Positions 35,977 through 64,000 of a stretch of DNA of 64,000 bases are shown here, piece after piece. The DNA is from Planctomycetota bacterium (GTDB lineage Bacteria; Planctomycetota; UBA8108; SXIK01): NCBI GenBank assembly GCA_965223265.1, contig OZ244999.1, positions 5,792,001 to 5,856,000 on the forward strand, in the 5' to 3' direction. The notes below the pieces were generated by a model that saw only the letters and a program-made list of their open reading frames with translations, was not told where the DNA came from and made no database searches. A program made the position numbers and the translations under genes. Each line of letters opens with the position of its first letter. Position 1 is the stretch's first letter.

Positions 35977-38900
35977 TCACGTTTCGCAGCCAGCCGAAGC
36001 TCTGCAAGTCAGGTTGTCCGCGGTCGGATCACTGCCGCATTTTCCGTGCGGCGGCGCGAGCACCTGGGCGCCGTCGAACAAATGACGCAGAATCGTCATG
36101 ACATCGCTGAGATCGACTTCGCCGTCGTCATCCGCGTCGGCGGCCTTCCAACACGGCGCCGCGCCGCGCCCTCGGAAGAGATGGTCAATCAAGCGAATGG
36201 CATCTGACAGGTTGATGTCGCCGCTTGCATTGACGTCGCCACGTTCGAAGCGCGTCAACACCTCTCCGGAAACGCGCAGGCGCTCGTACCTCTCCACCGA
36301 TATCGAGTCAAGGACTTCGAAGTTCTCGTCGAGATATCGAACTACGGCTTGAATCCCCAGCTCCGCTTCCGGAGCGACGATCTCGACCACACGCACGGGC
36401 GACGGAAGATCATGAATACGAAGCGAAGGCCGGAGCACAACCCAATATTCCACGCTACGATTATGGCGCTTGGCCGTGTAAATCAAATCCTCGTACGCTA
36501 CAACGTCCCTTTCGGCACCTCGCAGCGACAACTCCGCGGAGACCAAACTTGCCGGACCGCTCAACTCGCTCGGCGGAGCCGGTTCATGCCGTTCCCGCAG
36601 CTGTAAGATCGAACCGTCGGCAGCCTCGATGTCAACTTCCCACAGCGGCAACGTCTCGTAAGTGCATGAGGAATAAGTAACGTCTAAACTGTGTTGTCCA
36701 TGCAGCGACAGCGCACGCGTGAAGAACGCCTCGTCCATGATGCGCGAAACGGCTAAAGGCTCGTCTCCGCGTGCCTCAAACTCGAGGTCCTGAAGGGCAA
36801 GTTCGTACGTATCACCTCCGGGTAGAACGTATGTCTGCTCGTAGCGAAAACTGTAGGACGTCAGTTCGCCTCGATGCGTACGAACGACTCGAAATCTCCC
36901 GGGACTCAAAGGTTCAACAGACGTTCTGTCGGGGCCGATCGTCACTTCTTCGAACAGATCTGCGCTCCACGAATCACTTGTAGTCGGTAAAGGTATGGTT
37001 CCTGGAACAAACCTAATGCGACTCTTCAGCTCGTACGTCGTCCGTGGTGAGCGCGACGTGACGAAAACGCCGCATACGTTTGCTCCGCGTGGAATCTCCA
37101 AGGCGAACGTAGGAGTAGGAAGAGGCGGCGTTGAGCGCAAGAACGGTCGCACCTGCTTGAGAGCCAGCTCGCCGTTGGCCTCGATCTTGAACTCGATATC
37201 GAGAAGCACCTGTCGGCGCGGAACGTCGTCGGCGTCAATCGGAAAGTGGCGATCGACGTGCCAAAGGAGGCGACCAAGCTCCGCGAGTTGAACATCGGAG
37301 AGTACAAACTCCCCTGCGCCGATCAAATTCGAAGGCGAGGCACGAACGATCTCGACAAGCTCTCCTTCCTCGACTCGCAGTAAGTTCTTCTCGGCGAGGA
37401 CGCCAGGACTCGGGCTCACAACACTTTCCTCCCCCGCCTGGACGATCACCACGTAACGACTGTCCTCAGGGCGATTCGGATCTCCAGTGAATGCGACACC
37501 ATTTGCCCGCTCGTTCAGAAACGCCCGGTTCACTAAGACGCCCATGGTGGAGAGCTCTTGCGGAATACCGAAAAACGCTCTCTCCTCGTACGCTCGATAA
37601 TTCCAGTTGCTAGCCCAGACCTTCTTCAACGCCCGTTCGATCGTACGCTCGGAAGCTTGAGTGAAATCACAGTGCGATGGCCCCACGTCATCGGCGTCAA
37701 CGGTGTCAAGAACGCAAGCCGACGTAGAGTCATAGAGACCGGCGCCATTGAATTCCAACACGTCTTCGACATTCGAGGAGGAACGAAATCGCACCGGGAT
37801 GTTGTCAGCGCGGAAGACCTCTCGGATTCGTGCAGCGACGCGCGCGACAACATCAGGAGCGACGACGCCTTGGGCGCGCAGTGTGTCACGGAAGCGTCTT
37901 AGAACGTCAAACCGCAGCTCAGAGTCGCTCTGGAACTCAGCCCAATCCAGGAGCTCCTGCAGAAACTCCTCGTAGGTAACTTGCCGCTCGGAGTCCCGCG
38001 CCGACGGCATGCGATTCGCCCTCAAAAACTCGAGGTAATAGCTCATCGGAATAGCGAAACCCACTTCCTGATAACGCTGTAGGGGACCTGAAAGAACAGA
38101 CTGCAGCCGTGCGAGGTTGGCGGCCTTGCCGCCGTAGCGCGACACCGGCCGAGAGCCTGGCTCGAGCGCCATTTCTTCGAAGCGGTCAAGCGTCGAATAG
38201 TCCTCGTCGACCGTTGGCAGCTCTGAAAGCTGTGGCCGATTCGCAGCCCAGAACTCAGCTGCCTCACTGAGTGAGGCGGCATCGATGCTCCAGTCACCGG
38301 TCCCAACCTCAAGGCGAACCAGACGATCTTCGAACTCGGAAAACAGATCGTGTGCGTTCTCCACGAACACATTCGGAGTGCCGCGACGAGCACTGCGAAC
38401 GGCCAAGTGGCTTAGCTCTCCTTGAGGAGTTGCCGTGACCACTGCTGCGACGATTCCCTCTATGTCGCGTGGCGCGAAGTCCAGCACCACGATGTCCTGA
38501 AAACTGAGGCGACCACCGCCATTCAGCGCGGCGAATTCGCGCTCCGAGATCAGTCGCACGCGCCCATACGCAAGCCCTGTCGTGTATGGTACAAATCCCG
38601 CTACGCTAGGTGGCTCATCCAGGAACACCAAACTCTGGTCAGGCCAGCCAGAGGCATCTTCACGGGTCAGCGCAGCATCCGGGTAGTAAAGCAGCGGTCG
38701 CAGAGAGAAGACCTGTCTCAGTCTCGCCTCGACGCCGCGCACCTCATCGATCGTCGGAAGCTCCCGACGATCTGCATCGAAGTTCGTCAAGACGCTGAAG
38801 CCGTACAGTGGCCCGAAAGAGGTGCGAAGACGGTAGAGATTGCCACTGAAATACCGCCTCGTGGCTCGATTTCCCACCAGTTCGTCGTAAGCCTCAACAG

Positions 38901-41382
38901 CGAAACGATCTGAAAACTCAGCCGCGAGAAAATCTTGATGAAGACGGTACACGTTGACGTTCTGAAACAACGGAGGAAGAGATTCGGAGTCCTGCTCAGT
39001 CGCCGGCACGATGTACTTGCTCAATCGTCGTCTCACGTCGTGACGAACGACCGGAATCGACAACTCCTGAAACTCCAGTGGAGTACACACCCGCTCGAGG
39101 AATGTCCGTTCCGCCACCGTCACAGCTTCATTGAGAATGACGTCGAAGTCTTGAGATGTGTGATTCGCGCTCAACAGGTCAACGTCCCCATCACCATCGA
39201 GATCGCCTGCCATAGCGAAGCGCGGGTCATCGCCGACCTGGAGTTCCAAAGCCGGCAACAACCCACCATCACCGTTGCCGACGATGGCTGCGAGGGCGTC
39301 GTGTCGCTGACTTGCAACGACTATATCCGTGAGGCCATCCCGGTTGATATCGCCTGTTAGCAATGAGTACGGAGCCACGGACAGGTCGATCTCTAGAGCT
39401 AGGTTCAAGAATGCACGACCATCGTTCCTCCACAAGCTGAGCTTCCGAGGTAGCTCGTTGACTGCGGCGACGTCTACGAAGCCATCATCGTCGAAATCGA
39501 GCGTGGTGACGAACTGCGGGCTACGCACGTCGTAGTTCGCGGCAGATTGAAACGTACCATCTCCTCTGTTCAGCAGCATAGATACCGTCGACGAGGAGTG
39601 ATTCGAGACGACGAGATCGGTGGCGCCGTTTCGATCGAAATCGGCGGATGCTACAGATGTCGGGCGAGAGCCAACTCGAATGGTCTCACGTCGTGCAAAG
39701 CGGCCAGCGCCCTCGTTGAAGAGGAAAGTGAGCGCACCTGCACCGGCGCACGCCACAACGAGATCAGCCCGGCCGTCGCCGCTCAGGTCGGCATGATGAA
39801 GATAAAACGGCCCGCTGGCGACCGAATAACTGGCGTCCCATTCGAAGACTCCGGTGCCGTCGCCAAGGAGGACGTGCGCCTGGCTGTCGCTGTCACTAAC
39901 GGCGACAACATCGAGATCACCGTCCAGATCAAAGTCGGCGACTTCCAAAGAAAACAGTCCACTTGCCGTGCCAGCTGAAAACGTAGCTGGTGGCGAGAAC
40001 GTTCCGTCTCCGTGGTTTCTTAGAACAAAGATGTGGTTGCCACCGTCGTTCGCAACGATGTCGAGGTCGAGATCTCCGTCGACGTCGGCGAGCTCTGCGT
40101 GATGCGGCTCCCCACCCATCTCGACTCGACCCGCGTTTCTCATCCTCAAGAGCCCGCCACCACGAATCTCGTCATTCCACAGGATGTTGACGTTATTGTG
40201 CGCCGCGGACAGAACGGCAATGTCCTCGTCTCCGTCTGCATCGAAGTCTGCCGTGCCGAACTGACGAGCGACAACATCCTCGCCGAGGAACGAGGCGCGC
40301 ACAAACGTGCCGTCCCCTTGGTTGACGATAACGACTGTCTTTTGTGGTGCACGGAATGCAGCGATGAGATCAGTGTCCCCATCAGTGTCGATGTCGGCGA
40401 GCTGAAGCGCACTGGCTCGCCGATACTCGTTAGAGACCTGAACCTCGCGCGTGCGGTCACTATCGTCCTCACGAAACAGAATTGAGACGCCGTCGGCATG
40501 TCCAACGGCAAAGTCAAACCTACCGTCGGCGTCGAAATCAGCGATTGCAACCAGCTCGGGACCAGCACCAACGGTAGACAGTACCACCTGAGCGTCCAAG
40601 ACGCCGGCGCCTCGGTTGGGTAACAGGAGGAGCTCATTTGAGTCCCTGCTGGCCACGACAACGTCAACGTCGCCGTCACCTTCGACATCCTCAAGAGCGA
40701 TGCCGCGCGGAGAATCGCCGCTGGTGTACGTGACGGGCGATGCGAAGTCTCCAGTTCCTCGATTCATAAGCAGCATGACAACATTGGACGTGGAATCCAC
40801 AAGCGCGATGTCAATGTCGCTGTCATCATCCAAGTCTCCCAACGCCAGGTCACTTAACCCACTGACGATTTCGATCGAACGGGTTTGACCGAACGTCCCA
40901 TGCTCTAGATTGAAGTGAATGCTGAGTCCTCTTGTGTCGATGGCAATCAGATCAACATCACCGTCGCCATCGAGATCGGCGCCTCGCCACACTCGGCCGC
41001 GTCCTGGAACTGGTTGCTGGCGAGTGGTGTAGTCTCCCAGCGCTGCCCCACCTCGGCTCAGAACTGCGGTCAATCCATCTCGATAACCGACGACTATATC
41101 CGCCCTTCCATCGCCATTGAAGTCGTCGATCACAACGTCCTCGCCAGCCCGTGGCAGCAGAAAGCTGCTGACGGTCATGAAAGGTAGCGTCGCACCTTCG
41201 CACTCGTCCGGAACGCGATTGTCATTACAGTCCCGGCTGAGAGCCGCGGAGATATCGTCTGCGTCCTCTACGCCGTTTCGGTTACAGTCAGCCGCCGGAA
41301 GAGCGATCCTCAACATCGAAACGATCGTCAGTACAGTCCATCGTAATGAGTGAATCGCCCTCGACCGAAGCGTCTCGTTCAT
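35977..41382 (-). CDS. Secreted FG-GAP repeat protein fused to PEP-utiliser phospho-His and PPDK_N ATP-grasp domains, with dockerin-like C-terminus
   Basis: DCNRNG/DCNDN repeats; many ADxDGDGDxD repeats; LSHLAVRSARRGTPNVFV; YGGKAANLA, RFRSSSNVED..GAGLYDS, DIEFK..KQVRP; RGDVNASGDINLSD. Confidence 0.88.
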   Translation of the reverse strand: MNETLRSRAIHSLRWTVLTIVSMLRIALPAADCNRNGVEDADDISAALSRDCNDNRVPDECEGATLPFMTVSSFLLPRAGEDVVIDDFNGDGRADIVVGYRDGLTAVLSRGGAALGDYTTRQQPVPGRGRVWRGADLDGDGDVDLIAIDTRGLSIHFNLEHGTFGQTRSIEIVSGLSDLALGDLDDDSDIDIALVDSTSNVVMLLMNRGTGDFASPVTYTSGDSPRGIALEDVEGDGDVDVVVASRDSNELLLLPNRGAGVLDAQVVLSTVGAGPELVAIADFDADGRFDFAVGHADGVSILFREDDSDRTREVQVSNEYRRASALQLADIDTDGDTDLIAAFRAPQKTVVIVNQGDGTFVRASFLGEDVVARQFGTADFDADGDEDIAVLSAAHNNVNILWNDEIRGGGLLRMRNAGRVEMGGEPHHAELADVDGDLDLDIVANDGGNHIFVLRNHGDGTFSPPATFSAGTASGLFSLEVADFDLDGDLDVVAVSDSDSQAHVLLGDGTGVFEWDASYSVASGPFYLHHADLSGDGRADLVVACAGAGALTFLFNEGAGRFARRETIRVGSRPTSVASADFDRNGATDLVVSNHSSSTVSMLLNRGDGTFQSAANYDVRSPQFVTTLDFDDDGFVDVAAVNELPRKLSLWRNDGRAFLNLALEIDLSVAPYSLLTGDINRDGLTDIVVASQRHDALAAIVGNGDGGLLPALELQVGDDPRFAMAGDLDGDGDVDLLSANHTSQDFDVILNEAVTVAERTFLERVCTPLEFQELSIPVVRHDVRRRLSKYIVPATEQDSESLPPLFQNVNVYRLHQDFLAAEFSDRFAVEAYDELVGNRATRRYFSGNLYRLRTSFGPLYGFSVLTNFDADRRELPTIDEVRGVEARLRQVFSLRPLLYYPDAALTREDASGWPDQSLVFLDEPPSVAGFVPYTTGLAYGRVRLISEREFAALNGGGRLSFQDIVVLDFAPRDIEGIVAAVVTATPQGELSHLAVRSARRGTPNVFVENAHDLFSEFEDRLVRLEVGTGDWSIDAASLSEAAEFWAANRPQLSELPTVDEDYSTLDRFEEMALEPGSRPVSRYGGKAANLARLQSVLSGPLQRYQEVGFAIPMSYYLEFLRANRMPSARDSERQVTYEEFLQELLDWAEFQSDSELRFDVLRRFRDTLRAQGVVAPDVVARVAARIREVFRADNIPVRFRSSSNVEDVLEFNGAGLYDSTSACVLDTVDADDVGPSHCDFTQASERTIERALKKVWASNWNYRAYEERAFFGIPQELSTMGVLVNRAFLNERANGVAFTGDPNRPEDSRYVVIVQAGEESVVSPSPGVLAEKNLLRVEEGELVEIVRASPSNLIGAGEFVLSDVQLAELGRLLWHVDRHFPIDADDVPRRQVLLDIEFKIEANGELALKQVRPFLRSTPPLPTPTFALEIPRGANVCGVFVTSRSPRTTYELKSRIRFVPGTIPLPTTSDSWSADLFEEVTIGPDRTSVEPLSPGRFRVVRTHRGELTSYSFRYEQTYVLPGGDTYELALQDLEFEARGDEPLAVSRIMDEAFFTRALSLHGQHSLDVTYSSCTYETLPLWEVDIEAADGSILQLRERHEPAPPSELSGPASLVSAELSLRGAERDVVAYEDLIYTAKRHNRSVEYWVVLRPSLRIHDLPSPVRVVEIVAPEAELGIQAVVRYLDENFEVLDSISVERYERLRVSGEVLTRFERGDVNASGDINLSDAIRLIDHLFRGRGAAPCWKAADADDDGEVDLSDVMTILRHLFDGAQVLAPPHGKCGSDPTADNLTCRASAGCET

Positions 41383-43963: not shown

Positions 43964-44184
43964 CGAAAACTTCCGCGCAAGATCGTTTTCTGTGAACCTT
44001 TTCGAGCCGTATCGTACTGAAGTCGTGGGAGTCACGCGATGTCCAGCTCTCGCCGGGGACGTCTGTGGGGATGATTCCCGTAAACGACAGGGCGCAGAAT
44101 GTCGGGAATGACCAAAGACAATATAGCGTCGACGCCGTTTGCTCGTGCGATCGAGATGGAGTCAAGACTTCGAGGAACCCCTTG

Positions 44185-45057
44185 ATGGCGAACAACTTGT
44201 TCATCGGTCAATCCCTGGTATGGCAGCGATTCGCCGCTACCCTTCTGGCCGTCGCCATGGTGGGATGCGACACAGTAGGAATCCGTGGCGACGGCGCCAC
44301 CACCACGCTTCAAACACCGAGAGCTCGCCGGGAAAGCTCGGCAGCGGACGAGCGAGGACTTGCTGCTTTCCGGTATGAAGTCGATGCTGCGGCGGCGCGC
44401 GAGGAGTCTGATGCATTGCGGGAACGAGGCGCGTCCGAGCAGCCAGAAGGTTCGCCGGCCCGCAGCAAAGACACCACGACGTCTCGCACCTCGGAAACTG
44501 ATCATCAGGACGCAGCTGAGCGCCGTGTCGTCTATACCGCGGCGTTCGAGATTTTAGTCGCTAACGTCAAGGATGCGATGCAGCAGCATCTCCATGAGAT
44601 CAAGTCCCTTGGTGGTCACTTTCAGTCGCGAAACGCCTCGACGATCGTCAGCCGAGTCCCAGCGGCAAACTTTGAAAAGCTCGTCGAAACAATTCCATCG
44701 CTCGGCCGTGTCCTTTCCGAGTCGGTCGACGCGATGGACGTCACGAAACGCTACTTCGATCTCGAGCTACGCATTCGGACGACCGAGAATGCCTTGGAGC
44801 GGCTCGTGGTTCTTCTCAAGAAGTCGGAGAAGGTCGAGGATCTTCTCAAGATCGAAGAGCAGATCCGACGCCTCACCGAGGAGCTCGAGCGCCTGAAGGC
44901 AGAACTCCGGCAACTGGCCGATCGCGTCGCCTACTCCACCTTGACCGTGACATTTCACTCCAGCGCCCCGCCACCTCAGCCGCCGGGAGTCCGCGTACCC
45001 AACCGTTTCGAATGGATCAATCACGTAGGAATCGAATATGTCATCGATCAATTCTGA
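44185..45057 (+). CDS. DUF4349 domain lipoprotein
   Basis: Lipobox MVGC; RRVVYTA..RVPAANF..DVTKRYFDLELR..LLKIEEQI..LADRVAYSTLTV. Confidence 0.88.
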   Translation: MANNLFIGQSLVWQRFAATLLAVAMVGCDTVGIRGDGATTTLQTPRARRESSAADERGLAAFRYEVDAAAAREESDALRERGASEQPEGSPARSKDTTTSRTSETDHQDAAERRVVYTAAFEILVANVKDAMQQHLHEIKSLGGHFQSRNASTIVSRVPAANFEKLVETIPSLGRVLSESVDAMDVTKRYFDLELRIRTTENALERLVVLLKKSEKVEDLLKIEEQIRRLTEELERLKAELRQLADRVAYSTLTVTFHSSAPPPQPPGVRVPNRFEWINHVGIEYVIDQF

Positions 45058-45568
45058 CGCAACCGTCGCCGAACGCCACGCTCCTCGAAATCGACGGTTC
45101 GCGCTCAGGAAACTCCAACGAGTTTTCGTCGCAGCAGCGACGGGTCTGGCATTGACGAGCTGCGTCGCCATCGATCTCCCAAACGATTTCTTGGAAGTCG
45201 ATCGTGGTCTTGGGGAACTGAAAGCCGTATCGTCAGACGGGGCTCTTTTCTGGACAAGGAAGTTCAAAGATCCCCATCGAGGCAACCTCGAGTTTTGGTC
45301 GAACGCACTGGAGAGCGACTTCGCCGACAATCGAGGCTACGTCATGCTCGAGCAAGGAGAGACCACACTCGCCGGTGGTCGCCAGAGGTATGAATCGGTG
45401 TGGGAGACACGCACAAGGGGCGTTTCATACCGCTACTTGGTGACGCTTGAAGTCATCCAAGGATGGTTCGGGAACAAGATCGTCGTCTCGGAATTCGTCG
45501 CGCCTTCGGCCACGTTTGACGGCTATGTCGACGAAGTGCGTGCAGCCGTGGCATCAATGAAGTCGTGA
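45038..45568 (+). CDS. Hypothetical lipoprotein, coupled to the DUF4349 gene
   Basis: Lipobox LTSC after a hydrophobic stretch; overlaps the upstream stop; start position uncertain. Confidence 0.75.
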   Translation: MSSINSDATVAERHAPRNRRFALRKLQRVFVAAATGLALTSCVAIDLPNDFLEVDRGLGELKAVSSDGALFWTRKFKDPHRGNLEFWSNALESDFADNRGYVMLEQGETTLAGGRQRYESVWETRTRGVSYRYLVTLEVIQGWFGNKIVVSEFVAPSATFDGYVDEVRAAVASMKS

Positions 45569-45592: not shown

Positions 45593-47419
45593 TCAGCGGA
45601 TGCCTTCGGCTTCAAGACGCAGGATCTCGGCGCGCCAAACGTCACGGCGATCGTCGCTAGCCTCGTCTTCAGGCAACAGCGAACGCCGCGTGCAGTTGAC
45701 CAGCGCCTGCAGCGTCTGGTAGCGCCGCGTCTTCTCGATCGCTGGCGGAATGTGGTCGTGCACGATCGCCTCGACGTCCGCCATCTTGAGCAGCCCTCCC
45801 ACCGTCCGCGCCTTCAAGTTCGACCGTAGTGACGCGAACGCCGCCGCCGAGTATCCGGCCGTCAACTCGTCGAGTCGCTTCAAATCCGCCGCACTCGGTG
45901 CTGCGTCGAGCACACCTCTCGTGACCCATTTGAGAAACGCCTGTCGATCCTCTCCCTCGGGATCCAGCACCGGAATCACCAGGTCCCCGACGCGTCCCGG
46001 GCGTCGAATGTCCGGCGAGAGCAGATGGATCCTCGCCGTCATGAGCAGCCAAATGACACGACCGCGGAGGCGCGGGTCGGACATCATCTGCTGGACTTTG
46101 CCAGTCAACCGACGCTCCGTCGAGTGAGCCTCAGCGCCGACACCTCCGAACTGGGTGTCGGCCTCGTCGACGAAGATCACCACTTTGACAAGAGCTTCAA
46201 GAACTCGCCGCAAGCGTTCGAACACAACGTCCGTTTGCCCATACCACTGGCTGCGAATGTTCTTGAGCACGAGGACAGGCATGTCGAGCGCGCTGGCAAC
46301 GGCTTCGAAGATGAACGTCTTGCCACTGCCGATTGGCCCGGAGACGGCGGCGCCAGGCAGCGCATCTGCGCCGGTCGATTGAAACCTCGGGATCAACTCA
46401 TCGTTGAGAAAACCTTTGAGCTTTCTGAAGCCGATCACATCTTCCAAGGTGTGCTCAGGTTTTTTGAATTCAACGACGTCCTCGCCAAGCTGCGACTCGA
46501 TGAACTCACCGACTTTCTGGATCACCTCCGTAGGAGTCAGCGTTTCGTTGGCGTAGGCACTGCCGACCAAAAGCTGGCGCAGCGCGTGGATCGACAGCCC
46601 AGCGGTGTACATCGCCAGCACATCTTCGCTCGCCCACAGCTTCGGCGGCGGTGATTCGCCACGACTCGCGAACCAATTGACGAAATGGCGCCGCGTCTCG
46701 AGATCTGGCGGCGGCACGTCGACCGCGAGGACCTGCGGCAACGCCGCGACGCGTCGATGAATCATGCCGCGCGACTCGGCGACGAGAACGACGGAGTCGC
46801 TGCCTCGCATGAACGCCGGGTCGGAGAACCAGTCCTGCACAATGCCGACACGCCGCCGATCTGCTGCGGAGAGCCGTGAGACGTCTTCTCCGCTTTGCGG
46901 CAGGAGAAAATCCGCCGCCTCGACAACGATCATGAGATCGTCGGTTATGTAACTCTTTCCCTTCGGGCTCCTCGAGCGCGAACAGATCGTGAGTTGTCGC
47001 AAAAACTCGAGTGCTACGGTCGGCTGGCCGATGGCATCGCGCATGCGGCCTTCAAAGTCAGACTCGAACGCCTCCCGCTGCTGCGCCAGTCGTCGATCGG
47101 CAATCGCCTCGAACGCGGCAAGGTCGGGTTCGACGCCGAGCCGCCACGCAGTCCACGCACTCCGGAGACTCTCCCGCTGATCGGTGGGCACGACACGGAT
47201 CGGGCCATTCAGCTCGTAGACGAGCAGCGTCATACCGGGCACGCTGCATTTGTCGCAAAGAAACGGAATCAGCGGCTCGTAGCTGCCCTCCGCACGGTTC
47301 TGCCGCGTGAAGAAAAGGTCGTACACGTTTCCGGTCAAAAGAATACTGCGCGACTGACCGGCGTTGATGATCCGCGCGAGATGGCCGTAGAAGTCGTACG
47401 TCGGCTCGGAAGGGTTCAC
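45593..47419 (-). CDS. AAA+ ATPase: degenerate N-terminal AAA-like module plus active classical-clade AAA module
   Basis: Walker A GPIGSGKT; pore loop SQWYGQT; Walker B IFVDEAD; SRH DIRRPGR; N-terminal LLTGNVYD and IVVEAAD; GTGA overlap with the ABC ATPase gene. Confidence 0.92.
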   Translation of the reverse strand: MNPSEPTYDFYGHLARIINAGQSRSILLTGNVYDLFFTRQNRAEGSYEPLIPFLCDKCSVPGMTLLVYELNGPIRVVPTDQRESLRSAWTAWRLGVEPDLAAFEAIADRRLAQQREAFESDFEGRMRDAIGQPTVALEFLRQLTICSRSRSPKGKSYITDDLMIVVEAADFLLPQSGEDVSRLSAADRRRVGIVQDWFSDPAFMRGSDSVVLVAESRGMIHRRVAALPQVLAVDVPPPDLETRRHFVNWFASRGESPPPKLWASEDVLAMYTAGLSIHALRQLLVGSAYANETLTPTEVIQKVGEFIESQLGEDVVEFKKPEHTLEDVIGFRKLKGFLNDELIPRFQSTGADALPGAAVSGPIGSGKTFIFEAVASALDMPVLVLKNIRSQWYGQTDVVFERLRRVLEALVKVVIFVDEADTQFGGVGAEAHSTERRLTGKVQQMMSDPRLRGRVIWLLMTARIHLLSPDIRRPGRVGDLVIPVLDPEGEDRQAFLKWVTRGVLDAAPSAADLKRLDELTAGYSAAAFASLRSNLKARTVGGLLKMADVEAIVHDHIPPAIEKTRRYQTLQALVNCTRRSLLPEDEASDDRRDVWRAEILRLEAEGIR

Positions 47420-54901: not shown

Positions 54902-56698
54902 TTAGAAATCGAATTCGCTCTGAGACACGGACTCTGCCTTGACACGGAGGAGTCGGAACTCGACGCGCATATTCTCCTTTGACTCGCCGAGATCGCGTGG
55001 CCGTGCGATGACCGGCTCAATGATGCCGGCACCAATCGCTTGGAGCTGCTTCTCGTTCAGCCGAAACTGCTTCGACTCAGCGTATCTCACGATCGTTCGC
55101 CGCACTTCCTCAGCACGCCGCTGGGACAGATTCAACGCCGCCTGCATGGTTCGGCTTGGATCGTTTTCGCCGCCGTTGAACGCCCCCGATTGGACGAGCT
55201 CGACGATTCTCGAGGTCTCGTTGAGGTCAAGTGGCCTGCCCTCAACGAAGTAGCGGTAGTTGCCTCGCGTGCCAGTCCTCTTGATGATGCCCTTCTTGAG
55301 TCCAGCCATGACCAAGTCGCGGAGCGTACGCGTGGGATCAGCGTGACCTCGAATGGCGAAAACCGCGTTGCCGTAGAGTGAAGCATTCTCGACGACGCGC
55401 TGGAATTCAGCTTCGTACTGGCGAACGGGAAACTTCGTCTGGTTGGGCTCGAAGCTGATCGTGAAGGAGAGGAGCGTGCCCTCAGTCTCGACGCCTTCGC
55501 CGATTTCAGGCCCGCCTTCTGCCAGTTGCGTTTTTGTCAGCCCGCCCAGCCGAGTCAGTTGGGGGAACTCGAGATCGTGCATGAGGAGATCGATACGATT
55601 CTTCGCATAGCCTTGTGCAACTGCCAATTGCAAGGCTTCCCGCTGCTTCGTTTCGAAGCCGCTCAAGAATCCTGCCTCTTCGAAGAACAGCCGGTTGCCA
55701 CTCAAGAAGACGAACTCGCAATCCGAGATCAACCCGTCCGCCTCGGCGGCATTTGGGATGACGTCCGAACCGTAGATCTTTTGGGTCAACTCGAGAACGG
55801 CCGAATACTCACGCGACGACCCACTACTCTGGTATCCCCTTTTCATTTCTGCGACGTCTTCACACCCTTTCAGGTAGCCCGCAGCGAACTTCTCGACGAG
55901 GCCGCGTTGGGAGTCGTAGAAGTCCTTACGACAGGCGTAGACGTCCGCGATCGATCGGTTCATGTTGAGCGTCGACACCGCGACGTGGGCTCCCTTGACG
56001 GTGCCCTCGGCTCCGGTTCCGGCGGCGTCGAGACCGCCGGTGAGCCCAATCATGTCCGGCGAGATCACCATGCAGGCGTCGACACTGGAATCGGCGCGAA
56101 AACGAGACGCTGGCCCGCCGTCACCCGTTAATTCCTTCACCCAGACGACGTCGATATCGCTCCACCCGAGACGAGCACTCTTCAAGATATCGTCGAGCAT
56201 GCCGACGTGCGGGCCGCCTTGCTGGAGCACGACTTTCTTTCCCTTGAGGTCGTCCAGAGTTTCAATCTCAGCGCGCCCCACCATGTGGTCCCCCTGCGAC
56301 CACGTGAGCTGCAAAAAGACCACCGGGCGCGTGCGCGGATCCGAGCCCACGACTTCCGACGCCATGCCGATCATTCGCAGGGTGCCGCGAAGAAACGGCG
56401 TATCCCCCGCCATGTAGCGCTTGACCTGACCGACGAAGTCATCACCTGCGACGAGCTTCAGGTTCAGCCCGAGCTCCTGAAAGATCGAGCCGCGCTTCGT
56501 TGCAAGCCCGCCATTAGCATAGAACGTGGCAACGTCGCCGCCCCACGTGATGTAGGGCACCTCCAGCACTCCCTGCGCCTTCACGTTGCCCACGGGCGCA
56601 CGCCCGACGAGCTGCGCGAAAGACTCCTGCGCGCTCACGGACGTCCCGAAGCTCAACAGCGCCGCGAGCGCTCCGAACAGAAACGTTCTCGACTTCAT
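54902..56698 (-). CDS. Secreted SsuA/NMT1-like substrate-binding domain fused to an OmpA-like domain
   Basis: Signal MKSRTFL..VSAQ; YITWGGD; LTWSQGDHMV; SIADVYACR; ISFEPNQ..IRGHADP..NLSQRRAEEVR..ENMRVEF. Confidence 0.88.
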   Translation of the reverse strand: MKSRTFLFGALAALLSFGTSVSAQESFAQLVGRAPVGNVKAQGVLEVPYITWGGDVATFYANGGLATKRGSIFQELGLNLKLVAGDDFVGQVKRYMAGDTPFLRGTLRMIGMASEVVGSDPRTRPVVFLQLTWSQGDHMVGRAEIETLDDLKGKKVVLQQGGPHVGMLDDILKSARLGWSDIDVVWVKELTGDGGPASRFRADSSVDACMVISPDMIGLTGGLDAAGTGAEGTVKGAHVAVSTLNMNRSIADVYACRKDFYDSQRGLVEKFAAGYLKGCEDVAEMKRGYQSSGSSREYSAVLELTQKIYGSDVIPNAAEADGLISDCEFVFLSGNRLFFEEAGFLSGFETKQREALQLAVAQGYAKNRIDLLMHDLEFPQLTRLGGLTKTQLAEGGPEIGEGVETEGTLLSFTISFEPNQTKFPVRQYEAEFQRVVENASLYGNAVFAIRGHADPTRTLRDLVMAGLKKGIIKRTGTRGNYRYFVEGRPLDLNETSRIVELVQSGAFNGGENDPSRTMQAALNLSQRRAEEVRRTIVRYAESKQFRLNEKQLQAIGAGIIEPVIARPRDLGESKENMRVEFRLLRVKAESVSQSEFDF

Positions 56699-57708: not shown

Positions 57709-60700
57709 CTACTTTTGCAGGCCCGGCGCGGGACCCCACTGCTCCACCTCGGTCAGCTTTCCGGCCACGCCACCCCCACCAGCAGCAATCGCCAATCCAC
57801 CGATGAGAGGTCCATCCAACACTTGGAACTGGCCAGCCTTGTAGATCTCCATTCCAACCGCCACCGGGACGCCTCTGATCAGACCACCATACGTCACCAC
57901 GGCGAAAGCTGCGTGACTTCCTTTCTCGATGGGCCACTCGCAGTCGGCGGGCTTGTTCTGAAACGTGGCGCTCCCTTCAACGAAGCCAAACCCGGCGAAA
58001 GCTCCGAGCGTCAGATCCCCTTTACCGCGCACGAAGTATTGACACCCGGTCGTATCCGTCGCGTAAGCCGCTATTCTCATCTTTCCGAGCCCAGCGATGA
58101 GCGGCGAGCCCCAAAAACTCGCCCACACGAACCCCGACCACCGACACCCCTTCTTGGAGCAAGGAGGCATGCCTTCCGCGGGCGGCGCCTGTCGCCTGCG
58201 TTTCAAGCACTCGATGAACTTGTTCCACTCGTACGGGCTGCCATCCTCCGGAAGTGGGCAACCATATGGTCCGAGGGAAGTGTCATCGTGCGGATCGCGA
58301 GATCCCGGCCAATCGTCGTCATCTGTTGTTTCATCCATTCGGTACGGGTGGCGACCGTCGCTTGACCCACCGATGAGAAGCGGATCGCGCTGCACGAACA
58401 CTCCCAGATCCGCATCGTGAACTCTGAGTCCAAAGTCATGAAGTCCGTGCTGGCTGATATATCTCCGGCCTGCGAACAAGAAATCGTCCTCGAGTATTTC
58501 ATGCTGGGACGTCCAATCAGCGCTCAGCCGCGTCGGGTGTCCGTTCCCGTCGTAAAGATACCGGCCGCTCACCGCCCCATCCGAACTCAAACGCGTCACG
58601 ACGTTGGAGAACGCGTCGGTAACGTAAAACTCGAACGACGACGAGAGCCGTGACGAAGATCGCAGGACGATATCGTTTTGATCTCCTCCCCACACGTACC
58701 ACCGAGCGACGTCGTCGTCTGCGTACCACTCCTCGAGCAGGTTGCCTTCCGTCGAATAGTAGTAATCACTCTCGACCCACTGCGATTCTCCCGCTGAAAT
58801 CCTTTGATGCAGTCCGTTGTACCGATACGCGGAGAGTACAGACGACCCGGATCTCGCAGCGACCAATCGGTTCCACGCGTCGTAAACAAATTCGACACCG
58901 TCGTCGCGCCCTACCATGTTGCCAGCTCGGTCGTAGCTGTAGCGGGTAGCATCGACCTGTGTGAGCTCGTCCGACGCGTTGACCGAGCTCAACGACGGAG
59001 TACCGCAGAAGCTCTCGTCACCGCGGTAGTACTCAAGCCAATTCCCCACCGAATCCAGCGTCCAGCACTCGTGAGAATCAATCGCCGTCGACTGCCGAGG
59101 ATTCTCGCCGCGCTGGTGCTCAACGAGCCGGCCTGCATCGTCGTATGAAAACTCTTCATCGAATAGATACCGTCCATCGATACGGCCGACGTCGTCCCGC
59201 CGAACCACCACCTGGGATCGATCGTTGTACTCATATACGAAACGATTGATGTCACGGCGACCGTCCGTCACGAGAAGATCGTCGATTCTCCCAAATCGAT
59301 CAAGCCCCGCGTATCCATCGCTGTTTTCTTCGTCGTCACCGACCAGGGTGCGTACGATCCCGAGATCGCCGTATTCTCTTTCGACGACCCGGCTCAGCCC
59401 GAGGTACACATCACGGAACAGCCATTCGTCTCGCATCTTGGCGCCGCTGGGTCGACTGAACGCCGTGTCGACTCCCGGTTCGTAGACGTCCAGAACAACG
59501 ACACCGCTAGGGTAGGTCGTCGACACACGCTTGAGGCTGTCCGTCGCGCTCTTCGGGAAGTGATAGTCGTACGTCACCTTGTTGGAGACCCCCGGATCGA
59601 CCGCTCCGCGCCACTCTTGGTGTACAGTCTCGACGACGCCAAACGCTCCGTAACCGTAGACGACTTCGTCCTCTACATACCCCTGTTCACCATAGCTGCG
59701 AACGCGTACCGCACGATCAAGAGCGTCGTAGGAGCGCCCGATCTTTCGTATCCTCCCGTCGACTTCGGGGTCGCCAAGGTCAGTGACATGGTCAACGACG
59801 AGGCGTCCGCGCTGGTCGTACTCATACACGTGCTTCGTGTCGCGCTGGTCCTCCATGTACGTCTGCTCGCCCTGAGCGTTGTACGCGAAGTGAACTTGGT
59901 CGTCGGGGCCACCTGCAGCGCCGGTGATCGGATCCGGAAATCTGATGGTTCGGATCAAGTCGTTCGACGCGAGGCGTGAGGCGGAATCTCCAGATCCGTG
60001 CGTCACGCCGTAGACGAACGCCGTGACGCGGTCGTGGGCCGCAACTTCGCCGGCTGCCGCTTTCACCGTTTTCGTGCTCAGCCGCCCCGCGGCGTCATAG
60101 CCGTAGACGATCGTGCGGTCGTCGACACTCCCCGGTATACCGTCAGCGAAGTTCCCGATCTGCAGAGCCACGGCCCCCCAACCGGTGTACTCAGTCCGCT
60201 GAGTCACGAGGTCGCCGCTCTGCGCGCTGACTGCCGGTCCACGCCGCTCCTCGATCTCGCCGAGGAGTGTGTAGGTGTACTCTCTCACACGATTGAGAGG
60301 GCCTGAGACAGCAGGAGGCTCGCCTTGAGGTCGTGCGTCGAGATCGATTCCACCGTTTGTTCCGTAGCGGACGACCCGCGACAACCGTCCGAGCTCGTCG
60401 CGCCAGATCGCCGTGTATTGACCACGACCCGTTCCTTGCACCCCGACGGTCAGGCTGCCCGTGGCTTCTTCCTCAGCGTCATGGCGGCGTGAGTAAGCGC
60501 GGATCAATTCTGCCCCGCCTCCAGGGCCAGGTAGATACACGGTCTGTGCAACGACAGTGTCGCCTACAAGATCGTGTGCCGCTTCGTACGCGGACTCATC
60601 CGCATCGTAGGAGGCTGCACGGGCGATTATTCGACCGGCTCCATCGTAGCGCGTCTTCTCGAATCGCGCCCCTTGGCTTCGCGTCTTGACGATGAACCCG

Positions 60701-63636
60701 CGGCCGTCGCGCCAGGAGGACATACTCAGGAAACCAGTGATCTCTCCACCACGGACACCATACTCGCGCGATTCGTAGATCTGCTCCCATGGATCATAGA
60801 AGTTGTCGACACGGCTCAGAAGCACGCCGCGGCCGCGGTCGTTGAATCGCTCGACGCGCGTCACTCGCCCCAGATTATCGTAGGTACGGCTCTCCCTGAT
60901 CCGTAGAGGTTCGTGGACCGCGACGACGCGGCCTCGATAGTCGACGCGGTAGTCTGTCGCCCTTTCGCCCTCGCTCGTGTGGGTGTAGAGAACCTTACGC
61001 GTCAAATAGCCGTCACCGACACTCTCGACGACAGCCTCCTCTCCGTCGTAGAAACGTTCTTCGATCAGGGTCATGTTGTCGGAACGCCCGCCGTCGATCG
61101 TACCGATCCGGACACTCTTGAGTCGCCCCAAAACGTCTCTCTCGAAGCGTGTGATGGAACCAGATGGATTTCGCGTTGAGGTGAGCCGACCGGCCGCATC
61201 GTAGGTATGTACTGTTCTCTGCCGCGGCGCGCTCGCATCCGTCGGGTCGCTCCACACGATCTGTTCGGCCACTTCTCGACCACGATAGAGAGTATCCGTG
61301 CGCCGCAGTAGCACACCTTGAAAGCCTTCTTCGATGGTCGGCGCGCCACCATCGAAGTCGTCTTCGAAGTTGATGTCACGCCTGGCAGCGATCAGTTCTC
61401 CAGAAGCAGTGGTTCGCTCGCGGCCATCGGGGTCGAACACCGCGAGCGAAATCGCTGCATGGTAATAGACATCGTCGATGTGTGGGTACGCTAGAACCAC
61501 GAGTTCGCCGCTCGAAAGCTTGTCGTAGTGCCATCTCTGCGTCGTCCGCGTCGTCTTCAAACCCGTGCCGGTCCAAGCTTCGAAGGCTGCGGACTCACTC
61601 TTCTTGATGCGCCCCACAAGATCATAAGCATGCGTCGTCACCAGATTGGCTCCGCCGGGTCGTAAAAACACGGCGTCGGGAGGAACAGGAACACCGGCAG
61701 GACGGCGATCGGAGTCGAAGTCCAAGACGTTTAGAGTGGTCACGCGACGCGAGGGGTCGATCTCCCGATAGCTGACATATCCTTCTCCGTCCCTCGTCCA
61801 AGAGTGTCGCAGATCATCTTCAAAGTAGTCATAGAGAACGACGCTTTGCCCCGACCCGTTTTGGGTCACCGGAATCGGCGCCCGCGTGGTCTTGCGCAGC
61901 GCGACCGCCAATCGGTCGGCGACGTGGAAGGTCTCATAGCCATATTGAGTCGTGGTCCCAGGTCCGTCTGTCGTTTCCTGCGGGTAAACGGTCTCCGAAG
62001 TCTTGAGAAAGCGTCGCCGATCGCCCAACGCCCGCAGCGAAAAAACCTTCTTCCGCTGCAAGTTCCAACGCCGCGTCGTGGGGTCACGCAGTCTCTCTGT
62101 CAACGTCCAGGCAAGCGTGGAAGGTTCCTGGACGAAATTGTAGCTGCGGCGCATTCCCGCGTCGGGTTTCGTCGTCACGACGTGTGAGCGGTACTCTAAG
62201 CACGCCGCCACCGAATAGCTCTGCGCGAGTCGTCCGTCATGCCCTCGCCGGTACGTCTTGATCCATCTTCTCGATTCGGGATCGGCGGCATCCTCTTGGA
62301 GGACGCGGTTCAGAATTTGCCCGTAGCGATTGTAGTCGATGAAGTGGCGACCACCTGCAGGCAGCGTGATCGCTGCCTGCGAGAACCAAACGTTGAGGTT
62401 CGAAGCGCTCGCGTTCTGTTGCCAAGAATAGCGGTGGGTGCCGGCGCCAGCGCCACAATCGCACTGGTTCTCCAGCGCCAGGCTCCTAAGGCGCTTGTCG
62501 GAATAGTACGTGTAAGTGCGTTCGAGATAGTCCTGTAGTTCGCCGACACTGCGCTCGTATGCATTCGTCCCGGGTTGCACGCGCTGCAGTTCTGCCATAG
62601 CCCCGGGCCCGAGAACTGCGGCCACCTGATGAGCATGGCCGGAATGCGAAGCACTGTCGTACGGGCCGACGTAGTATTTGAACGCCCAGCGACGTCGATA
62701 ACTCTGCCCGCTTTCCGAAAGCGCCAACTCCTCTTCGATGCCGACCAGGTCGCCGATCGAGCTACCGACTGGCTCGCGGACCTCTTCGTGATATGTAAAA
62801 TCGATCGTGCGATAGGGGATGCCCCAGACGCCGTTCTTTGCCGCAACCTCGATGCGATCGATGCGAGCGCCGTGACCATAGTCAGCCAGTACGTACCTGA
62901 ACCTTCGCACCTCAGTCTGTGCGTTCAGCTTTTGCAGCACGGAGATTGTGTCGACCGAGTAGATGATTTCAATCTCGGCCAAACCAATCGGTTCGATCTT
63001 TGTGCAGCGATAGTTCTCCGCCGCGCTGAAGGTGTAGACCTTGCCGCCGATGTCGTACATCTGCAGGAGCGCCGGGTTCGCCTCCCGGTGAACGAGCTTG
63101 GCCCTGCGGTTGCCGAAGCGCCCCCAATAGGTACCCGGACGGTCAGAGTCAGCATCGAAGAATCGAACCGTGTTGGCGTCGAAACGAATGACCCAGGTGT
63201 CGTTCGCGTTGTCATATTCAGCGTACGGGATCTTCGTAAACCAATTGTGCCCCAGCGGTCGATTCTCGCTTGGCGGATAGTCTCGACCATACTTGTAGCG
63301 CGTCCGATAGGTCGGGGAGGGATCCCACTCGAGCCCGCCAGGCCCCTCCTCGGCTGCGAGGCGCGGCGCCACGTTGTCGAAGCCGCCGTCGCCGTCGATT
63401 GGCTCGATCCAACGATCCTTCGGCGGCTCGTCCTTCAATCCGGGGAAACCTTCAGCAGGCGCCAGAGTCACGTCATCTTCTCCAGTCTCCCCCAGCGTCC
63501 GCCATCCGTGAAGCGGCATGAACTCGTGATCGTCCTCGGCGGCGAAGCTCCGCGCCAGAAGACCGGCGCACACCGTGGCAACGACGACCACAACGCCCTT
63601 CCGCACCACCACCGCAGCCTCTATGCTTCTCTTCAT
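57709..63636 (-). CDS. RHS/YD-repeat protein with Sec-like signal and a variable C-terminal domain
   Basis: Many YD repeats (YDAAGRL, YDNLGRV, YDQRGRL, YDAWNRL); RHS core FAGRRY..GLHDFGLRVHDADLGVFVQRDP; hydrophobic N-terminus ending SFAAE. Confidence 0.92.
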   Translation of the reverse strand: MKRSIEAAVVVRKGVVVVVATVCAGLLARSFAAEDDHEFMPLHGWRTLGETGEDDVTLAPAEGFPGLKDEPPKDRWIEPIDGDGGFDNVAPRLAAEEGPGGLEWDPSPTYRTRYKYGRDYPPSENRPLGHNWFTKIPYAEYDNANDTWVIRFDANTVRFFDADSDRPGTYWGRFGNRRAKLVHREANPALLQMYDIGGKVYTFSAAENYRCTKIEPIGLAEIEIIYSVDTISVLQKLNAQTEVRRFRYVLADYGHGARIDRIEVAAKNGVWGIPYRTIDFTYHEEVREPVGSSIGDLVGIEEELALSESGQSYRRRWAFKYYVGPYDSASHSGHAHQVAAVLGPGAMAELQRVQPGTNAYERSVGELQDYLERTYTYYSDKRLRSLALENQCDCGAGAGTHRYSWQQNASASNLNVWFSQAAITLPAGGRHFIDYNRYGQILNRVLQEDAADPESRRWIKTYRRGHDGRLAQSYSVAACLEYRSHVVTTKPDAGMRRSYNFVQEPSTLAWTLTERLRDPTTRRWNLQRKKVFSLRALGDRRRFLKTSETVYPQETTDGPGTTTQYGYETFHVADRLAVALRKTTRAPIPVTQNGSGQSVVLYDYFEDDLRHSWTRDGEGYVSYREIDPSRRVTTLNVLDFDSDRRPAGVPVPPDAVFLRPGGANLVTTHAYDLVGRIKKSESAAFEAWTGTGLKTTRTTQRWHYDKLSSGELVVLAYPHIDDVYYHAAISLAVFDPDGRERTTASGELIAARRDINFEDDFDGGAPTIEEGFQGVLLRRTDTLYRGREVAEQIVWSDPTDASAPRQRTVHTYDAAGRLTSTRNPSGSITRFERDVLGRLKSVRIGTIDGGRSDNMTLIEERFYDGEEAVVESVGDGYLTRKVLYTHTSEGERATDYRVDYRGRVVAVHEPLRIRESRTYDNLGRVTRVERFNDRGRGVLLSRVDNFYDPWEQIYESREYGVRGGEITGFLSMSSWRDGRGFIVKTRSQGARFEKTRYDGAGRIIARAASYDADESAYEAAHDLVGDTVVAQTVYLPGPGGGAELIRAYSRRHDAEEEATGSLTVGVQGTGRGQYTAIWRDELGRLSRVVRYGTNGGIDLDARPQGEPPAVSGPLNRVREYTYTLLGEIEERRGPAVSAQSGDLVTQRTEYTGWGAVALQIGNFADGIPGSVDDRTIVYGYDAAGRLSTKTVKAAAGEVAAHDRVTAFVYGVTHGSGDSASRLASNDLIRTIRFPDPITGAAGGPDDQVHFAYNAQGEQTYMEDQRDTKHVYEYDQRGRLVVDHVTDLGDPEVDGRIRKIGRSYDALDRAVRVRSYGEQGYVEDEVVYGYGAFGVVETVHQEWRGAVDPGVSNKVTYDYHFPKSATDSLKRVSTTYPSGVVVLDVYEPGVDTAFSRPSGAKMRDEWLFRDVYLGLSRVVEREYGDLGIVRTLVGDDEENSDGYAGLDRFGRIDDLLVTDGRRDINRFVYEYNDRSQVVVRRDDVGRIDGRYLFDEEFSYDDAGRLVEHQRGENPRQSTAIDSHECWTLDSVGNWLEYYRGDESFCGTPSLSSVNASDELTQVDATRYSYDRAGNMVGRDDGVEFVYDAWNRLVAARSGSSVLSAYRYNGLHQRISAGESQWVESDYYYSTEGNLLEEWYADDDVARWYVWGGDQNDIVLRSSSRLSSSFEFYVTDAFSNVVTRLSSDGAVSGRYLYDGNGHPTRLSADWTSQHEILEDDFLFAGRRYISQHGLHDFGLRVHDADLGVFVQRDPLLIGGSSDGRHPYRMDETTDDDDWPGSRDPHDDTSLGPYGCPLPEDGSPYEWNKFIECLKRRRQAPPAEGMPPCSKKGCRWSGFVWASFWGSPLIAGLGKMRIAAYATDTTGCQYFVRGKGDLTLGAFAGFGFVEGSATFQNKPADCEWPIEKGSHAAFAVVTYGGLIRGVPVAVGMEIYKAGQFQVLDGPLIGGLAIAAGGGGVAGKLTEVEQWGPAPGLQK

Positions 63637-64000
63637 TTCAGCCCCTTTCACTTCGAACGTCCCGTCGACCTCTCGACGAGCATGAAAAGACACCACGCGC
63701 GCCTGCGCCAGGCGCGCACCGATTGCTGACACCGACAGGCAACGCAGCAACACAACCCGGCGTGCGCGGGTGTGAACCTTGCCTCGCGTTCCCTGCAGGC
63801 ACTGCGCTCATACGACCCGAGCCCCCCACTCGGCGTGAGGCCGCCAGAGCCTACGGCACCGTGAAGACCTCCGGCGTGCCCGCGGCGACCCCGACCACGC
63901 AGAAAAGATTCGCAACTGCTCCTTACTGTCACTGCCCGGACGCTCGCTTCGATGTCCGAAGCCTGTCGAGCGTCGTTTCCCAATCCTACGAAGCAAGTCC

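Follow-up and report, generated by a model that had tools for sequence, protein, structure and literature searches.

A tandem AAA+ ATPase encoded with a divergent PspA-like protein in a planctomycete, a plausible bacterial counterpart of Vps4

The window analysed here is a 64 kb stretch of a Planctomycetota genome (contig OZ244999.1, positions 5,792,001 to 5,856,000; the host genome is 9.18 Mb in a single contig), and on its minus strand it carries a cluster of nine genes, two of which are our main subjects. One encodes a tandem AAA+ ATPase, P0001 (45593..47419, 608 aa, GTG start), and the other a divergent PspA/IM30 protein of the ESCRT-III superfamily, P0005 (50342..51169, 275 aa), in which a helix at the N-terminus precedes a long hairpin with an insertion at its tip, and whose C-terminal tail is conserved. 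An earlier note, made from the letters of this DNA alone, had proposed that the ATPase remodels its PspA partner in the way that Vps4 acts on ESCRT-III, its dead N-terminal module standing in for a MIT domain. Gene linkage and co-occurrence across genomes strongly support a dedicated functional partnership between the ATPase and the PspA-like protein and, judged from sequence comparison, P0001 is a plausible bacterial counterpart of Vps4.

That P0001 is a real gene and not a chance open reading frame (ORF) follows from its family and database matches and from the conservation of its motifs. The Pfam AAA family (PF00004) matches residues 359-478 with a score of 53.4 bits, its cut-off being 21.2 (E 4.8e-14), and a search of PDB sequences returned 217 distinct matches at E<=0.001, the best of them VAT (1.1e-24), with p97/Cdc48 (about 1e-20), AFG2, and NVL/Rix7 as the other best solved relatives. 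Among 8000 scored candidates from the protein database, 2370 matched at E<=0.001; the top 120 share 56-69% identity with P0001 across 95-100% of its length, and the closest relatives bear Planctomycetota or Pirellulales names. Pfam and NCBIfam scans of P0001 gave nothing more specific than generic AAA, the best NCBIfam models being those for CDC48 (TIGR01243, 65.2 bits), CdvC (50.2 bits), PAN and FtsH, all far under their cut-offs.

Each of the motifs that the earlier note had named was found in the protein, namely Walker A GPIGSGKT (residues 361-368), pore loop 1 SQWYGQT (390-396), Walker B DEAD (418-421), the arginine fingers RRPGR (472-476), and TGNVYD (29-34), which stands in the place of a Walker A in the N-terminal module. 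With a PF00004 score above the gathering cut-off, a Walker A, a Walker B and the arginines of the second region of homology (SRH), P0001 shows these features of a classical AAA protein. An alignment of 34 homologues with 48-69% identity to P0001 demonstrated that the motifs, in the forms GPIG[GS]GKT, IRSQW[FY]GQTD, DEADTQ and SRH RRPGR, are invariant or nearly so. They lie in the C-terminal module (about residues 311-555), a classical-clade AAA module predicted from its motifs to be active, which is followed by a conserved helical extension at the C-terminus (residues 556-608).

In the N-terminal module (about residues 1-310, nt 46490-47419) the fold is AAA-like, and neither a Walker A nor a Walker B is present. 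In an AlphaFold2 (AF2) model built on the alignment of these homologues, with a mean predicted local distance difference test (pLDDT) of 88.9 and a predicted template modelling score (pTM) of 0.81, residues 5-579 were superposed by VIA-align on the D1-D2 pair of Drg1/AFG2, Rix7, NVL, VAT and p97 (Z 19-21, about 460 residues aligned), and Foldseek agreed with this placement. Residues about 305-580 alone fitted Vps4, spastin and FIGL1 equally well (Z about 20, root-mean-square deviation (rmsd) about 3 A). Because of the D1-D2 superposition and the absence of Walker A and B, the modelled N-terminal 310 residues are best described as a degenerate D1, neither a novel domain nor a MIT domain, so that the degeneracy named in the earlier note is borne out.

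Mean identity to P0001 among the 34 homologues was 50% in the dead module and 74% in the active one, and despite its lower conservation the dead module contains many invariant residues, a pattern which indicates that it is kept under selection. When residues 1-310 were searched against 1.84 billion representative proteins, 326 matched at E<=0.001; many of the matches listed were proteins of about 550-650 aa with the match at their N-terminus, and the remainder were shorter, mostly 80-450 aa. The dead module thus appears, by sequence, to be a domain specific to this family.

The partner, P0005, is a remote relative of PspA/IM30. It fails the Pfam model PspA_IM30 (PF04012; 10.7 bits, E 0.4, cut-off 33.9), and a search of the whole window genome with PF04012 at E<=0.001 returned zero matches, the same search being positive in 9 of 14 control genomes. 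Its kinship was recognised by several converging lines of evidence. Comparison by hhalign of a 32-sequence profile of the P0005 family with a profile of 14 canonical planctomycete PspA proteins gave a probability of 88.7% (E 2.5e-6) over 190 collinear columns, and 15 of the 32 family members match PF04012 at E<=1, the best at 1.1e-5. The AF2 model of P0005 has helices at residues 2-16, 31-100, 112-196 and 200-241, of which the second and third form a hairpin with a short tip insertion between them; a Foldseek search with this model was headed by Vipp1 and PspA, with a best E of 1.4e-3 and none at E<=0.001. By their sources, some members of the family are called 'PspA/IM30 family protein' or 'phage shock protein A'. 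The family profile found nothing significant among PDB sequences (Vipp1 at E 1.7-3, prefoldin at 0.03), and a single-sequence phmmer search of the same sequences with P0005 was empty.

At E<=0.001 the P0005 family comprises 1207 database proteins. In the 32 aligned sequences the C-terminal 60 residues are strikingly conserved, reading AGTDT..EAEFLEYA..DEFDxLIGLA, then a variable acidic linker, and then [RKQ]LPE at the very end, with the Leu-Pro of this last motif present in 31 of 32. Elsewhere in two of the genomes that carry the system there is also a canonical PspA matching PF04012 (86.5 and 159.5 bits).

To quantify the association between the two genes within the phylum, we used a sample of 201 genomes, consisting of the window genome and 200 others. 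Full-length orthologues of the ATPase, with 48-65% identity, were found in 8 of the 200 other genomes, and in all eight loci a PspA-like gene lay within 6 kb; in three of these the two genes were directly adjacent with no ABC (ATP-binding cassette) genes, four had the full seven-gene core as in the window, and one was rearranged. Strong matches to the PspA-like protein (E<=1e-113) and full-length ATPase orthologues were confined to one and the same set of 9 among the 201 genomes, and one further genome had weak matches to both proteins. The nine genomes are related and not independent, and these counts are descriptive in kind and do not amount to a statistical test.

A scan of named genomes extended the comparison, yielding 561 stretches that encode an ATPase relative, of which the best 80 were used for the counts of loci. 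A PspA-like ORF was present in 55 of these 80. In 32 it was the next gene upstream and on the same strand, the two open frames often overlapping or lying 4 bases apart; genes for a substrate-binding protein (SBP), a permease and an ABC ATPase intervened in 20; and the remaining three had another arrangement. Flanks were incomplete in 16 of the 80 loci, and in nine no PspA-like gene was found despite at least 8.5 kb of upstream flank. Each of those nine genomes encodes exactly one member of the PspA-like family elsewhere (E 1e-115 to 1e-139). The earlier note had looked to homologues living mostly without a PspA-like gene as evidence against its proposal, and the distribution is the reverse, with 55 of 80 linked and a copy elsewhere in 9 of 9 unlinked genomes. 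Since ABC genes are absent from the 32 adjacent loci, the comparison of loci indicates that the minimal conserved unit is the pair of PspA-like and AAA+ genes. Distant paralogues of the ATPase, with 28-37% identity over residues about 160-590, lay near PspA-type genes in 8 of the 20 loci examined (five by the canonical profile, and three more by PF04012 coordinates), and beside ABC genes in 8 of the 20.

In the window itself the ATPase gene and the PspA-like gene are 2.9 kb apart, the latter upstream, with the SBP, permease and ABC ATPase genes between them. The statement that P0001 is 'encoded with PspA' therefore holds for the cluster and not for the gene next to P0001, since three importer genes intervene. 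The first of these, P0002 (47416..48345), is an ABC transporter ATP-binding protein of NitT/TauT-like type (PF00005, E 2.4e-32), for which nitrate and taurine NCBIfam models were best, all under their cut-offs. It is followed upstream by P0003 (48399..49208), a TauC/SsuC-like ABC permease (PF00528, E 2.3e-14), and by P0004 (49205..50287), a periplasmic SBP with a hydrophobic N-terminal leader (TIGR03427 ABC_peri_uca, 174.5 bits, cut-off 333.9), whose coordinates are those of the ORF as listed and whose true start may be an ATG five codons in. The gene immediately downstream of P0001 is convergent, and a scan for promoters and terminators gave no more sites than shuffled sequence.

Beyond P0005, the cluster continues upstream with four further genes on the same strand. 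P0006 (51288..52034) has, by its translation, two hydrophobic N-terminal segments and a cytoplasmic coiled coil, is conserved beside the PspA-like gene, and is a candidate membrane partner of the PspA-like protein. It matches no Pfam family, even at E<=10, and hhalign gave no link to PspA profiles (probability <1%); an Atlas search returned one lead, Rv2743c, at 0.88 only. P0007 (52050..53828) is a membrane-anchored SBP-like protein with a C-terminal OmpA peptidoglycan-binding domain (PF00691, E 1.1e-12, residues 496-570) and weak SBP matches at residues 286-376, and it is conserved in long-form loci. P0252 (53828..54862) combines a signal peptide, a VWA domain (PF00092, E 9.7e-11) and a C-terminal membrane anchor, and homologues of it (>160 bits) lie directly upstream in 16 related loci. 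P0251 (54902..57007) is a second secreted SBP-like protein (NMT1; PF09084, E 1.4e-5) with an OmpA/MotB-like C-terminus and a weak ZorB/MotB match at residues 613-695; its true start is likely the Met at nt 56698, ahead of the signal peptide, and homologues (>200 bits) lie upstream in 15 related loci.

Other genes of the window were noted in passing. On the plus strand at 44065-45568, a DUF4349 protein (E 1.3e-40) and the small family-less protein P0008, which has a hydrophobic N-terminal segment with a Cys, are encoded in convergent orientation towards the end of the ATPase gene, and neither of these two genes gave matches beside the ATPase in related loci. Farther away on the minus strand are genes for a protein of 1801 aa that combines 12 FG-GAP repeats with a PPDK_N ATP-grasp-type domain and a dockerin (35977-41382), and for a 2014-aa RHS-repeat protein (57709-63753).

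By the titles of their records, members of the family come from Planctomycetota, Verrucomicrobiota, Hydrogenedentota, Sumerlaeota, Acidobacteriota, Desulfobacterales and Nitrospiraceae, and on the same basis the adjacency of the pair is kept in at least five phyla. Bremerella cremea JCM 17758, which is in culture, also carries the pair. When 78 ATPase sequences were placed in a quick maximum-likelihood tree, its branching agreed for the most part with phylum labels, with two changes for the 51 Planctomycetota rows and a single Verrucomicrobiota clade (support 97), and this fits a cellular system that has been kept mostly vertically. In the viral collection IMG/VR, 7 putatively viral contigs, one of them 436 kb long, encode ATPase relatives with 46-55% identity, and 6 of the 7 have the PspA-like gene and most other genes of the cluster upstream.

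Several copies are odd. A complete long-form cluster occurs on a contig labelled Bathyarchaeia, in whose genome the CdvC model matches only an FtsH-like gene and this ATPase, and a copy labelled Nealsonbacteria nests among Planctomycetota in the ATPase tree; both look mis-binned or mislabelled, and not like transfers across domains. Two orthologues look damaged or mis-assembled, one ATPase being split into two overlapping ORFs and another containing one in-frame TAG.

The domain anatomy, motif conservation, gene linkage and co-occurrence described above are observations, and several readings can be placed on them. We consider it somewhat probable that P0001 is an ATP-driven remodeller that extracts PspA-like subunits from a polymer, and that it is the motor of a bacterial PspA-AAA+ module. 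In outline, two stacked AAA-type modules, the first of which has lost its nucleotide-binding motifs while the second keeps Walker A and B, the aromatic pore loop 1 and the arginine fingers, would assemble into a ring that docks on the divergent PspA/IM30 protein of the same cluster. Docking may use the C-terminal tail of the PspA-like protein ending in [RKQ]LPE, which is a candidate handle. ATP would then be used to pull subunits from the PspA-like polymer at the cytoplasmic face of the inner membrane, and the assembly, turnover or constriction of the polymer would be controlled thereby, in a manner functionally like that of Vps4 on ESCRT-III. Inferred here are the ring, the binding, the threading, and whether the effect is one of disassembly or of assembly. 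Extraction is the most economical reading because of what is established about classical AAA unfoldases, and because the pair is conserved and co-inherited.

A complex prediction of full-length P0001 with residues 196-275 of the PspA-like protein, using separate alignments, gave a score of 0.44, compared with 0.02 for the best of three controls, a result classed as weak support. The runs agreed in at least 31% of contacts with a partner pLDDT of at least 45; no interface was reported, and we do not count the prediction for or against the partnership. For orientation, 116 of 157 solved complexes attain this mark, as do 2 among 215 mismatched pairs; with a score of 0.60 or under it is attained by only 18 of the 157 solved complexes and by both of the mismatches that passed.

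In the nine-gene long form found in this genome, the pair is accompanied by a coiled-coil protein as candidate membrane partner, an importer of NitT/TauT type, a VWA protein in the periplasm, and two binding proteins tethered to peptidoglycan, and this gene content suggests that membrane remodelling is tied to an envelope or solute signal. It is conceivable, if rather doubtful when all its parts are taken together, that the system is a bacterial machine of ESCRT-III/Vps4 type that is independent of archaeal Vps4, in which the LPE tail serves as a handle resembling a MIT-interacting motif and is read by the dead D1 or by the pore, subunits are threaded and recycled, and the nine-gene form is wired to peptidoglycan-tethered periplasmic sensing and import. 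If so, the inner membrane would be reshaped or repaired on an envelope solute signal in lineages, such as Planctomycetota, Verrucomicrobiota and others, that are known for unusual membrane architecture.

Four observations weigh against extraction by P0001. In the full-text literature, we found no experimental study of the pair, either biochemical or genetic, for any member. Since P0005 lies below the Pfam cut-off and is only a remote homologue of PspA, its formation of a polymer is an assumption. In the window, the GTG start of P0001 and the stop of the ABC ATPase gene share the letters GTGA, so that the translational coupling of P0001 is with the ABC ATPase gene and not with the PspA-like gene. 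Lastly, all 34 homologues have Ala where the sensor-1 Asn would stand ('LLMTARI', residues 458-464); the 'MTAR' of P0001 aligns with 'ATNR' of VAT at the sensor-1 position, and P0001 thus lacks the classical Asn. The 'ATN' sensor-1 Asn after strand beta-4 is a classical AAA feature, and sensor-1 mutants of FtsH and p97 lose most of their ATPase activity, so the motor of P0001 may be slow or switch-like.

The PspA-like protein could instead be a membrane platform or adaptor, with the ATPase extracting or unfolding other clients, for example membrane proteins that are damaged or wrongly inserted, or the subunits of the ABC importer, as is done by Cdc48, Msp1 and FtsH. This arrangement, which we hold to be improbable, would suit the tandem architecture of P0001 and its best sequence matches, which are Cdc48/VAT/AFG2-like and not Vps4-like, as well as the GTGA coupling to the ABC ATPase gene in the window, and ABC genes do lie between the two genes in 20 of 80 loci. 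However, 32 of 80 loci consist of the pair only, without ABC genes, which excludes the importer as the client in general. Strict co-occurrence with a PspA-like gene is expected under both readings and does not separate them. At a slightly lower probability still, the sensor-1 Ala, if it means slow hydrolysis as sensor-1 mutants of other AAA proteins would suggest, could point to a nucleotide switch, in which P0001 is a non-threading regulator or assembly chaperone that keeps the PspA-like protein soluble or loads it onto the membrane, a PspF-PspA pair with the roles reversed, and the conserved dead module could then be a binding platform. The near-invariance of the pore loop IRSQW[FY]GQTD, of the Walker B DE and of both SRH arginines is hard to explain without engagement of a substrate in the pore and hydrolysis, however, and P0001 has neither a sigma-54 activator domain nor a helix-turn-helix (HTH) in the Pfam scan, so that it is not PspF-like in family.

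Two other explanations set the partnership in a different context or dissolve it. The presence of relatives on the seven IMG/VR contigs, six of them with the PspA-like gene, together with matches in PADLOC to IetA (23 bits) and LmuB (20 bits), might suggest that the module serves conflict between phage and host, either as a defence or as a phage-carried means of host takeover. We regard this as very unlikely: the PADLOC matches are weak and reflect generic AAA and coiled-coil similarity, and the ATPase tree largely follows phylum labels. Hitch-hiking of an ATPase with an unrelated housekeeping role, for which we found no specific support beyond the unlinked genes in 9 of 64 informative loci, seems more improbable still, because the same 9 of 201 phylum genomes hold both genes, all nine unlinked genomes still hold both, and adjacency has been kept across at least five phyla.

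The means by which bacterial relatives of ESCRT-III such as PspA and Vipp1 are disassembled or recycled is a standing question, and it is in this context that P0001 is of interest. Passages of a 2025 review (PMC7619361) state that a Vps4-like ATPase appears absent in bacteria, those of a 2024 structural paper (PMC11746142) suggest only 'chaperones or PspF', and those of PMC10936438 describe ESCRT systems with both genes as confined to archaea and eukaryotes. A dedicated AAA+ partner that is strictly co-inherited with a PspA-like protein would offer a direct experimental handle on this question, as the pair should be small and soluble enough to reconstitute.

Comparison with known AAA systems places P0001 near several of them and within none. 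It resembles Vps4 and CdvC in having a classical-clade AAA module with an aromatic pore loop 1 that is encoded with a gene belonging to the ESCRT-III superfamily, and its C-module superposes on that of Vps4 at Z about 20, with an rmsd of about 3 A over about 255 residues. In contrast to Vps4, it has two modules and not one, no MIT or Vps4_C domain in the Pfam scan (E<=0.01 for MIT), and Ala at sensor-1, and the CdvC equivalog model NF041006 gives it 50.2 bits against a cut-off of 650. By its two modules, the missing MIT and Vps4_C domains and the sub-cut-off CdvC score, P0001 does not belong to the Vps4 family, and it is at most an analogue of Vps4. With Cdc48/p97/VAT, Drg1/AFG2 and Rix7/NVL it shares a tandem D1-D2 fold across residues 5-579, and these proteins also give its best sequence matches. 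P0001 differs from them in that its D1 has no Walker A or B and the Pfam scan found no Cdc48-type N domain, in its length (608 aa, compared with about 750-800 aa) and in its TIGR01243 score of 65.2 bits against a cut-off of 802.65. The absent N domain, the dead D1 and a score far under the TIGR01243 cut-off likewise rule out membership of Cdc48. With the PspF-PspA pair of E. coli the system shares an AAA+ protein that is tied to PspA, genetically and physically in the case of PspF. In PMC11237479 and PMC7619361, PspF is described as an NtrC-type enhancer-binding AAA+ protein with an HTH that is inhibited by PspA, whereas P0001 is of the classical clade, with no sigma-54 interaction domain and no HTH in the Pfam scan.

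The closest likeness is to an operon class that has already been described. PMC11237479 (mSystems 2024; bioRxiv 10.1101/2020.09.24.301986) reported that bacterial PspA co-occurs with a protein of two AAA+ domains, the N-terminal copy being inactive, and section 18 of that paper describes longer operons with a 'Snf7 homologue' bearing a transmembrane (TM) segment, an ABC ATPase, a permease, and a PBPB+OmpA protein, and proposes ATP-dependent membrane remodelling comparable to that by Snf7/VPS4. The operon type and the analogy with Vps4 are thus already published as a prediction, in 2020 and 2024, and the agreement of that reading, arrived at independently by comparative genomics, speaks for the remodelling proposed here. 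The gene content of the window matches this class item for item, by architecture and not by example accessions: two AAA+ domains of which the N-terminal one is inactive, co-occurrence with PspA, and the ABC ATPase, permease and PBPB+OmpA protein of the long form. For the 'Snf7 homologue', the window has the conserved TM coiled-coil protein P0006, in which we detected no Snf7 or PspA similarity by Pfam or hhalign, and we do not endorse that label. Neither the VWA protein nor the second SBP-OmpA protein is mentioned in section 18, and the same holds for the [RKQ]LPE tail and for the Ala at sensor-1. To this published class our analysis adds figures for the linkage and co-occurrence of the ATPase and the PspA-like gene, the extension of the long form to nine genes, the conservation of [RKQ]LPE at the end of the PspA-like protein, and the family-wide Ala at sensor-1.

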